DNA of 17,035 nt from a virus (lineage: Duplodnaviria; Heunggongvirae; Uroviricota; Caudoviricetes). The stretch is from positions 1 through 17,035 of the IMG/VR virus record IMGVR_UViG_2671180417_000010. One strand, 5' to 3'. A program made the position numbers and the translations under genes. This document shows, piece by piece, positions 7,728 to 8,768 of this stretch. The notes under the pieces were generated by a model. It was not told the DNA's origin and did not search any database. It saw only the letters and a program-made list of their open reading frames with translations. Numbering within the stretch: the first letter of the stretch is position 1; each line of letters opens with the position of its first letter.

Positions 7728-8000
7728 TCACTTCTGCGGGTAGTTGCGCCATATTGCTTTACCAATACCAGCTATCCCCATTTGTTTTTCAGTGCGATTA
7801 ACTGACCTTTTCAGAGCGCCTAAATCATCCGGCGGCTCCGGTGGCCTCTGTGCATTCCTGGAACATTCCAGCCGTCGCATTGCCACCTGTGCGCGTTCCT
7901 TGTCTGTCTCCACCAGCTGCATGACTTCACCCCATCGCGCCGCCGCCCTCCGGTAAAATCCTTTCGCCTCGAGTTCCTCCGCTATGCGGTCATGTACCAT
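7728..8000 (-). CDS. Small regulator, PerC-like (putative transcriptional activator)
   Basis: Start set at ATG 7998..8000 (MVHDRIAEELEAKGFYRRAAARWGEV...), preceded by GAGGGGG and lying just after the ssb stop. The longer ORF-track frame overlaps ssb. The AEELEAKGFYRRAAARW motif resembles PerC-family small activators; assignment by recollection only. Confidence 0.4.
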   Translation of the reverse strand: MVHDRIAEELEAKGFYRRAAARWGEVMQLVETDKERAQVAMRRLECSRNAQRPPEPPDDLGALKRSVNRTEKQMGIAGIGKAIWRNYPQK

Positions 8001-8010
8001 CGTCACCCCC

Positions 8011-8421
8011 TCAGAACGGAATATTGTCACCGTAGGGGTCATCGCCTCCCGCTGGTGGCTGATTACCCTGTGTGCCTGTGGTTGTGCGTCTGCTGCCACC
8101 TGGTCGCGCCGTTTTCGCACTGATTACGCTGTCTGCAATAACCTGATAACCCTGCCGCGTTTCCCCGTTCTGTCCGGTCCACTGGCTGACCTGCATGTTA
8201 CCCGCCACGCTCACCAGTTCGCCTTTGTGGTGTTTTGCCAGTGCGTCGGCCTGTCTGCCAAACGCCAAGACGGATAACCACATCGTCGCCTGTCCGTCAT
8301 CTGCCTGATTGCACGGCAGGGGAACCGCCATGCTTGCCATAGCCATTTGTGTCCCTTTGCTGGTGGTCTTTAACTGCGGGTCAGCCACCAGCCGACCGTA
8401 AGCCGCTATCTGTGCTGTCAT
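8011..8421 (-). CDS. ssb: Single-stranded DNA-binding protein (SSB-like)
   Basis: 136 aa. OB-fold-like N-terminal pattern (AAYGRLVADPQLKTT...WLSVLAFGRQADALAKHHKGELVSVAGNMQVSQWTGQNGETRQGYQVIADSV), Gly/Thr/Pro-rich linker and C-terminal acidic tail ending DNIPF (compare canonical SSB DDDIPF). ATGA overlap with the upstream ORF. Confidence 0.7.
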   Translation of the reverse strand: MTAQIAAYGRLVADPQLKTTSKGTQMAMASMAVPLPCNQADDGQATMWLSVLAFGRQADALAKHHKGELVSVAGNMQVSQWTGQNGETRQGYQVIADSVISAKTARPGGSRRTTTGTQGNQPPAGGDDPYGDNIPF

Positions 8422-8768
8422 GCTGTCTGTTCTCCGGTTTTAACGTTGATGGTTGTTACCTGTTCCGCTGTGCTGTTAGCCGGATACCATGCAAGCGTTC
8501 CCGGTTCATCTGAAAGAATGAATTTTGTGTCAGGTAAATACAGACACTCGCAATATCCCTCTGCGCTGTGATGTGGTGTCATCCCCGTGTCGCCAGTGAG
8601 TACCGGTAATATCTCAGAGTAAGTTTCAGAATCACTGGAATAAAAAACATCACAAATCGCCCATGCAGCGATCGGACTCCACCACTCGCCGCAATCGTCA
8701 TCTTTGAATCTTGCCCACCAGCCTGGAACAGCTGGAGAAATGCTTTTGGGTATGGCTTCAAGAAACAT
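8418..8768 (-). CDS. Hypothetical protein (116 aa), Trp/Cys-containing, first gene after the iteron origin
   Basis: ATG at 8766..8768 with GAGGTG 5 nt upstream. Translationally coupled to ssb. No recognisable motif. Confidence 0.5.
   Translation of the reverse strand: MFLEAIPKSISPAVPGWWARFKDDDCGEWWSPIAAWAICDVFYSSDSETYSEILPVLTGDTGMTPHHSAEGYCECLYLPDTKFILSDEPGTLAWYPANSTAEQVTTINVKTGEQTA

Follow-up and report, generated by a model that had tools for sequence, protein, structure and literature searches.

The window analyzed here, a 17,035-nucleotide stretch of viral DNA, carries three small genes on its minus strand, positioned between an 11-copy iteron origin and the gene for an HK97-type major capsid protein. 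From upstream to downstream on that strand lie a primase gene, the replication origin, an open reading frame (ORF) for a 116-aa protein, a gene for a single-stranded DNA-binding protein (ssb), a gene for a PerC-family protein (perC), an intrinsic terminator, an untranslated leader, and the capsid gene. A preliminary description of this DNA had already placed the trio between the iterons and the capsid leader and had assigned it a terminator of its own, and all of these placements are confirmed on the minus strand. The region is the 3′ end of the early, replication-side transcription unit of a capsid-forming phage-inducible chromosomal island (cf-PICI).

Organization of the early operon end and the capsid leader

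The primase/replicase gene (positions 9105 to 11249, minus strand) encodes a 714-aa protein with a DUF927 domain (PF06048, E = 1.9e-48) that is identical in the related loci L004-L008. Downstream of it, the origin (positions 8806 to 9079) consists of 11 copies of the iteron GGGACRAC in both orientations. All copies present in the window lie within this interval, against an expectation of 1.1, and none of 200 shuffles reached 11. An AT-rich stretch, TATATATATA, adjoins the iterons at about positions 8785 to 8800. Origins of Escherichia coli PICIs have the same layout, with iteron sets on both sides of an AT-rich region (PMC6092414).

The 116-aa ORF (positions 8418 to 8768, minus strand) is preceded by a GAGGTG Shine-Dalgarno sequence. 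A sigma-70-like promoter candidate, TTTTCA-17-AATAAT, lies 67 nt upstream of this ORF (positions 8835 to 8863, minus strand). It is a consensus match only. Between positions 7400 and 9200 this strand has two promoter-like sites, including this one, a count not above that of shuffles, which makes this weak evidence for a promoter. The 116-aa protein has no match in Pfam or NCBIfam. Comparison with PHROGs indicates that it is a hybrid, with a core (residues 9 to 78) resembling phrog_27268 and a tail (the last 16 residues) resembling that of phrog_1231, and only 33 of 1.84 billion proteins represent its family. The position held by this ORF is highly variable between islands, and the small ORFs that follow the origin change with the replicase. 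The ssb and perC genes form a separate block that is better conserved than these small ORFs.

All three genes had been described as translationally coupled. This holds for the 116-aa ORF and ssb, whose stop and start codons overlap as ATGA (positions 8418 to 8421), but not for ssb and perC, which are separated by 10 nt (TGA-GGGGGTGACG-ATG). The latter two genes are close and operonic without overlapping, and a ribosome-binding sequence, GGGGGTGA, sits in the gap between them.

The terminator (positions 7704 to 7721, minus strand) closes the early operon and forms its boundary with the packaging module. It has a 7-bp stem with five G-C pairs, followed by TTTTTGTCATT. The hairpin sequence, GCCGGAG-A/C-AATCCGGC and then a T run, is kept in every related island that was aligned. 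This hairpin follows perC in one island with an otherwise different downstream module (L030) and follows ssb in a classical PICI (L027), and the DNA after the hairpin is specific to the packaging module. Thus, the early unit ends with the same terminator whichever gene is last. Two copies of the hairpin are present in the O157 and Shigella islands, where they flank a gene for a protein of 74 to 100 aa (phrog_1957) that we call gene X. The O157 island therefore has gene X and a second terminator between its perC homolog, pchE, and the capsid leader, whereas the window has neither. One hairpin copy and gene X are missing from both the window and the E. coli IAI39 island, as would be expected if the two hairpin copies had recombined.

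The leader of the capsid operon (positions 7441 to 7703, minus strand) comprises 263 untranslated nucleotides, is about 96 to 97% conserved, and is strongly structured (z = -4.9). It contains a hairpin followed by U7 (positions 7441 to 7477) immediately before the ATG of the capsid gene, which starts directly after the leader at position 7440. The capsid gene (positions 6283 to 7440, minus strand) is the first gene of the packaging module (TIGR01554, E = 6.4e-88), and the 385-aa form of its product is called in all related records. The leader also has three copies of TTGTTC at 10-bp spacing (positions 7656 to 7680). Arrays of the same kind are located upstream of int (positions 15531 to 15555), in the interval between int and alpA (positions 14144 to 14178, and 13914), and at the far att end (positions 193 to 217). 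The array pattern has 10 matches where 0.97 are expected, and none of 200 shuffles reached 10. These arrays are conserved in related islands. Their pattern would suit an excisionase-like regulator such as AlpA, or arm sites for Int, and offers a candidate for a late switch that can do without PerC. Because the leader of L030 lacks such an array, this is a lead rather than proof.

Identity of the island and its proteins

The window holds a cf-PICI of approximately 15.3 kb that belongs to the family of EcCIEDL933, also known as OI-51, CP-933C, or Sp7. Its length is given by att repeats at positions 149 to 224 and 15487 to 15562. In addition to the primase, origin, and trio, the island encodes an integrase, AlpA, Icd-like genes with a C4 antisense RNA, and a DUF4222 (RgdR-like) protein with an RGD motif. 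The head and packaging module is complete and of HK97 type (capsid, protease, portal, two connectors, HNH, TerS, and TerL), and no tail or lysis genes are found among the genes of the window. The defining features of a cf-PICI, which are int, alpA, pri-rep with an iteron origin, and a full HK97-type head and packaging set without tail or lysis genes, are therefore all found here; the size range used for this class is 10 to 15 kb.

The gene order is that of the islands located at the phoQ-roxA site in E. coli IAI39 and O157:H7. The island at this site is O-island 51 (CP-933C, Sp7), which was later named cf-PICI EcCIEDL933 by the Penades group (bioRxiv 10.1101/2022.09.08.507074). Induction by a helper phage via AlpA and transfer in the island's own small capsids with helper tails have been shown for EcCIEDL933 only (bioRxiv 10.1101/2022.09.08.507074). 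Proteins of the O157 island are 85 to 100% identical to those of the window, except for PerC (78%) and the DUF4222 protein (31%). The two islands also differ in location, since the window copy resides inside a lambdoid prophage and the O157 island is at phoQ-roxA. Several contigs that encode the exact window PerC carry the island as well, and on these the tested proteins are 100% identical to those of the window (99.6 to 99.8% for TerL).

The ssb gene (positions 8011 to 8421, minus strand) encodes a short SSB of 136 aa, in which an OB fold is followed by a linker of approximately 30 residues and, at the C terminus, the tip DPYGDNIPF. Its assignment as an SSB-like protein with a DNIPF tail was borne out by profile searches (PF00436, E = 3.1e-17, 63 bits versus a cutoff of 26; TIGR00621, 60 bits versus a cutoff of 53.95), and the protein matches 27 solved SSB structures. 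Identity to E. coli Ssb is 25%, and the two proteins share the OB fold and a C-terminal tip of the form D-x-I-P-F. Of the four aromatic residues that stack on ssDNA, three have aligned equivalents: W48, F54, and W81 of the island SSB align with W54, F60, and W88 of E. coli SSB, whereas W40 has no equivalent. The island protein further differs in its shorter linker (about 30 versus about 60 residues), in a less acidic tip (GDNIPF versus DDDIPF), and in having a leucine in place of the tetramer-interface residue His55. In an alignment of six related SSBs from E. coli PICIs, the tip is kept as DPYGD[N/D/G]IPF.

The perC gene (positions 7728 to 8000, minus strand) encodes a 90-aa protein, consistent with the size of about 90 to 105 aa that is used to recognize the PerC family. 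This assignment was originally proposed from a motif, and an HMM search now gives a match to PF06069 (E = 4.7e-38) of 129.8 bits versus a cutoff of 22.6 that spans profile positions 1 to 89 of 90. A longer reading of the gene, with 130 codons from a GTG, would add 40 residues, all of which fall outside the profile. The N-terminal family signature LExKGxYRRAAxRW is intact, and residues L10, E11, G14, R17, R18, A19, A20, R22, and W23 are invariant in an alignment with PerC of enteropathogenic E. coli (EPEC), a group-1-like Pch protein, and a plasmid homolog.

By identity and synteny (ssb upstream, in an OI-51-type island), the window protein is the ortholog of PchE, the group 3 Pch protein. PchE from O157 is 76% identical overall and 78% identical over 87 aa in a local tblastn alignment. 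It likewise has 90 aa, its first 37 residues are the same, and its gene also follows ssb in an island of this type, with the same terminator sequence, although the C-terminal half has diverged substantially. Other members of the family are more distant. EPEC PerC, encoded in the perABC operon of the EAF plasmid pMAR7, shares the Pfam family and the N-terminal motif and is 40% identical, and the group-1-like Pch protein is 42% identical. PchA, PchB, and PchC of enterohemorrhagic E. coli (EHEC), encoded by lambdoid prophages, also share the Pfam family and the motif. The genes for EPEC PerC and PchA/B/C are located either in the virulence plasmid operon or downstream of prophage lysis genes beside effector genes. 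Their products activate LEE1/ler, the activity from which the family takes its name, whereas proteins of the PchE type show little or no such activity (PMC5931665, PMC6265319, PMC11773190). For PchE itself, minimal or no activation of LEE1/ler has been published (PMC5931665, PMC6265319; Porter 2005 as cited in PMC11773190).

A further relative is EcCIMP1_025, which is also a PerC-family accessory gene on an E. coli PICI (EcCIMP1), but which occupies a different place in its island and silences LEE1 in Citrobacter rodentium. Its product is approximately 40% identical to the PerC-like proteins of EcCIEDL933 and EcCICFT073 (PMC11773190). A weak resemblance to ANR anti-activators has been noted for EcCIMP1_025. 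The corresponding NCBIfam match of the window PerC is below threshold (E = 0.04, 13.8 bits versus a cutoff of 32), and we set it aside as evidence.

Searches by sequence found no relative of PerC with a solved structure. The predicted model of the protein gives a TPR-like match, which corresponds to a short helical segment of a kind that matches many helical proteins. The model suggests that PerC might work through protein contacts rather than through a classical DNA-binding domain. Relatives of its N-terminal half carry the label “transcriptional activator” in PHROGs.

Distribution of the ssb-perC pair

The ssb-perC pair is a standard part of E. coli PICIs and not a local insertion. The two genes had been described as inserted between the origin and the head module. 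However, their G+C content of 55 to 59% matches that of the flanking primase and head genes in a compositional test for foreign insertion, and the arrangement is normal for this island family; for these two reasons we do not consider the pair to be inserted. Among 5,426 complete E. coli genomes, 1,369 have matches to the ssb-perC DNA (743 with both genes covered), whereas only 534 match the HK97 portal-capsid block. The two genes therefore have a wider distribution than this particular head module.

Within the close relatives of the window, the pair is nearly fixed. A scan of genome contigs with the capsid protein yielded 12 loci, of which five were informative, and this was supplemented with IMG/VR loci. 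Intact ssb-perC is present in 34 of the 36 IMG/VR loci that have enough upstream sequence and a capsid at least 98% identical to that of the window, and the remaining two carry deletions. The exact window PerC sequence occurs on at least 20 public contigs, and identical perC genes are found at three different chromosomal sites with different neighbors. In one island (L003) PerC is identical to that of the window, the capsid module is 99.6 to 100% identical, and SSB is 85% identical, with a different replicase and different small ORFs.

The pair and the head module are also found apart. The closest ssb-perC DNA (93.8%, in L030) belongs to an island with a RepA-type helicase and a lambda-like capsid and decoration module, and the classical PICI L027, which has a lambda-like capsid and decoration module with terS, carries ssb without perC. 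Conversely, perC is absent from the cf-PICIs of Rosenbergiella, Citrobacter amalonaticus, Erwinia psidii, and Gilliamella that share the head module of the window, and from six IMG/VR loci with enough upstream sequence and capsids that are 66 to 70% identical. Across these perC-less cf-PICIs, the capsid is 66 to 74% identical to that of the window and the portal and TerL are 65 to 80% identical, and most of them have gene X before the capsid gene instead. In the Shigella flexneri species representative (L011), a deletion joins codons 1 to 24 of ssb to the final third of perC. Thus, ssb-perC is optional in other genera and near-fixed in E. coli.

A DNA search of a phage genome collection with the locus gave no match, and a protein search with PerC gave two weak matches only, one of which is in a P1-like phage-plasmid among IS elements. 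These sparse matches therefore lend no support to a role in phage late-gene expression. No recurrent ssb-perC pair was found in the plasmid contexts of PerC homologs, and those inspected were perABC on pMAR7, a prophage lysis cassette beside espS, and an AraC-like/ProQ region of an IncI plasmid.

Proposed roles of the SSB and PerC in the satellite

Taken as a whole, the region is probably best explained as the end of a cf-PICI early operon in which the SSB serves replication and PerC is optional cargo directed at the host. For the SSB, the most likely role is to support replication from the island origin and to recruit host partners of SSB through its IPF tip. Evidence for this proposal includes the constant position of the gene after the primase and origin, the conserved tip, and the established role of the corresponding tip in E. 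coli Ssb, which recruits partner proteins. The ssb gene follows the primase and origin in several types of PICI, including L027, where perC is missing. Similarly, the SSBs of Gram-negative PICIs co-localize with the primase and origin, and Mageeney et al. place SSB and primase together in the PICI replication category (PMC10111431).

In the mechanism that we envision, AlpA would switch the island on, the replicase would open the origin, and the island SSB would coat the unwound DNA. The D-N-I-P-F tip could then engage the host proteins that normally dock on SSB, and the island would have its own supply of SSB while helper and island replicate together. Against such a need, the host SSB may be sufficient for the island. 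No mutant or knockout of a PICI ssb gene was found in the literature searched.

For PerC, we infer a host-directed role from its ortholog and its distribution. PchE represses csgD and curli, biofilm formation, and adhesion, and raises flagella (PMC6265319, PMC7369912, PMC5931665), phenotypes that derive largely from plasmid overexpression. Overexpression of PchE changes ler less than twofold and has little effect on the enterocyte effacement locus (LEE) (PMC5931665, PMC6265319, PMC7369912). By analogy, PerC would be optional cargo at the end of the operon whose main targets are host genes, in line with the effects of PchE on curli/csgD, adhesins, and flagella, and it would not be a dedicated activator of the capsid operon. 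The substantial divergence of its C-terminal half from PchE counts against this reading. We favor a regulator of host genes over a capsid activator because of the distribution pattern, the shared terminator junction, and the experiments with PchE. Of the two roles offered for PerC in the preliminary description, regulation of host genes thus agrees with experiments on an ortholog that is 76 to 78% identical, whereas the proposal of a late activator for the island fares poorly.

According to that proposal, PerC would be an early-operon product that turns on a promoter in the 263-nt leader, such that the capsid is made after replication. We consider it unlikely, even though perC is located directly upstream of the capsid leader, which is the classic place for a late activator, and is kept in nearly all close relatives (34 of 36). 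Furthermore, the promoter-like sequence of the leader, as read by eye, is weak and would need an activator, and the PHROGs label for relatives of the N-terminal half also fits. However, the same head module occurs without perC in four other genera and six IMG/VR loci, and the Shigella island L011 keeps the same leader after losing perC. In many islands gene X and an additional terminator separate perC from the leader, and perC is also found in front of a packaging module that, like its leader, is unrelated. Expression of pchE in O157:H7 is basal and falls two- to sevenfold on SOS or prophage induction (PMC6265319, PMC7369912, PMC5931665), the opposite of what a late activator calls for. In addition, overexpression of AlpA has been used to drive reproduction and capsid production of EcCIEDL933 (bioRxiv 10.1101/2025.02.11.637232), and the TTGTTC array that the leader shares with the int/alpA promoter regions and both att ends points to AlpA or Int instead.

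A second possibility, to which we assign a low probability, is that the trio acts on the helper. PerC would modulate regulators of the helper or of other prophages, and the SSB would aid helper replication or compete with it by titrating host partners, a competition for which the IPF tip could be suited. Tuning the expression of helper genes is common among satellites, another E. coli PICI that aids helper replication encodes a PerC-like regulator (PMC11773190), and the island in the window lies within a lambdoid prophage. On the other hand, helper transfer was unaffected by mutations in island packaging genes, in a study whose scope was outside the trio genes (bioRxiv 10.1101/2022.09.08.507074), and the presence of identical perC genes at three sites with different neighbors implies no fixed helper partner.

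Although the sequences on either side of the cf-PICI packaging module have been described as variable and likely to carry immune systems (bioRxiv 10.1101/2025.02.11.637232), and the position of the 116-aa ORF is itself highly variable, it is very improbable that the trio is an accessory “hot spot” for antiphage defense or counter-defense, given that no PADLOC defense-system model matches any of the three proteins, that close relatives keep ssb and perC instead of exchanging them, and that both encoded proteins are members of well-defined non-defense families.

The host-directed reading of PerC leaves room for a function within the island, which PerC may have given the near-fixation of ssb-perC beside the head module in the E. 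coli clade. One speculative version, which we view as a long shot, is that the PerC/PchE proteins of PICIs are small TPR-like adaptors akin to ANR anti-activators. Produced from the early operon, they would bind host nucleoid or AraC-type regulators and reprogram the cell for the satellite. If this were true, the satellite could benefit, for example, from relieved silencing of island or helper late genes, and the virulence, curli, and flagella phenotypes would be side effects.

The SSB and PerC genes of the trio are already described in the literature, and our findings re-describe documented genes. A putative ssDNA-binding protein and PchE have been recorded on OI-51/Sp7 (PMC3378721), and some E. 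coli PICIs are known to encode PerC alleles (PMC6092414). PerC-family regulators are common in Gram-negative PICIs, and one allele silences LEE1 (PMC11773190). The practical value of the present analysis is modest. What it illustrates is a documented feature of E. coli satellites, which carry an SSB in the replication zone together with allelic PerC/PchE regulators that affect adhesion, motility, and, for some alleles, the LEE. Here, a PchE-type regulator is carried by a self-packaging satellite, which occupies several chromosomal sites and is even found inside a prophage. Therefore, regulators of colonization traits can move with the satellite.

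Loss and apparent exchange around ssb and perC

Most of the ssb-perC segment has been removed by independent deletions in three related island loci, namely, L011 from Shigella flexneri (5173-5334) and L041 and L032 from IMG/VR. The product of the Shigella deletion is a 53-aa in-frame fusion that joins the 5′ end of ssb to the 3′ end of perC, and the head module of this island is intact despite the deletion.

Upstream of ssb, the 116-aa ORF of the window ends in the peptide tail ...EQVTTINVKTGE (8418-8470), whose coding DNA contains the GGAGAA ribosome-binding site of the next gene. 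The same tail, seen also in L011 (4800-4861), ends different small ORFs, namely, those for phrog_1231 proteins and the window ORF. It appears to serve as a portable junction for module exchange.

On the other side of perC, cf-PICIs of several genera carry a phrog_1957 gene (74-100 aa) directly upstream of the capsid gene. Among the related islands, it is found in L002 (9133-9357), L011 (5398-5700), L013 (5013-5273), and L015 (5494-5769), and no Pfam family was found for its product. Across the loci compared, this gene has a broader distribution than perC. In O157 and Shigella islands, it lies between two copies of the perC terminator, and it is absent from the window and IAI39 islands, where it was apparently lost by recombination between the two terminator copies.

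Island location and additional regulators

The island copy in the window sits inside a lambdoid prophage (flanks at 1-148 and 15563-17035) and has the same orientation as the surrounding prophage genes. On the int side lies a hok gene with its sok RNA (16169-16493), along with a DUF551 gene, and genes for DUF968, RusA, and the Q antiterminator lie on the TerL side. This arrangement resembles that of the “helper-embedded” PICIs (PMC10111431), although those islands lie within a late gene, whereas the window island lies within the nin region. An identical PerC is also encoded by islands at the pntB/tqsA and phoQ sites; this comparison of island locations covered the window together with loci L006 and L008.

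Rfam matches on the minus strand place a C4 antisense RNA, scoring 69 bits, and the corresponding a1/b1 target, scoring 46.8 bits, at 12374-12461 and 12529-12578, adjoining two Icd-like ORFs (12152-12658 and 12609-12881). Judged from sequence, these elements together form a predicted RNA immunity module of the P1/P7/P4 type within the island. The window also encodes, on the minus strand (11246-11545), a DUF4222 protein of 99 aa that contains an RGD motif (FMRGDIYRD). This protein is the counterpart of RgdR (ECs1581), which is encoded on OI-51 and regulates type III secretion (PMC3378721). The window allele shares only 31% identity with its counterpart in the O157 F3113 island, compared to 81-100% with the alleles of other islands.

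The capsid leader and TTGTTY arrays

The capsid leader (7441-7703, minus strand) is ~96-97% conserved across islands that diverge by as much as 25% in their perC alleles, and it is strongly folded (z −4.9). Its 3′ end is a 7-bp G+C-rich hairpin followed by U7 that abuts the capsid ATG, and no Shine-Dalgarno sequence is visible there. The hairpin and U7 resemble a terminator or attenuator that guards the head operon.

The leader also carries one of the TTGTTY repeat arrays (7656-7680), which have 10-bp spacing. Others are located at both att ends (193-217 and 15531-15555, the latter upstream of int) and in the int-alpA interval (13914-13928 and 14144-14178). The window holds 10 matches to the repeat pattern versus 0.97 expected, and the arrays are kept in related islands. 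They are candidate AlpA (excisionase-like) sites or integrase arm sites. If so, these arrays would tie excision to alpA control and to expression of the head genes.
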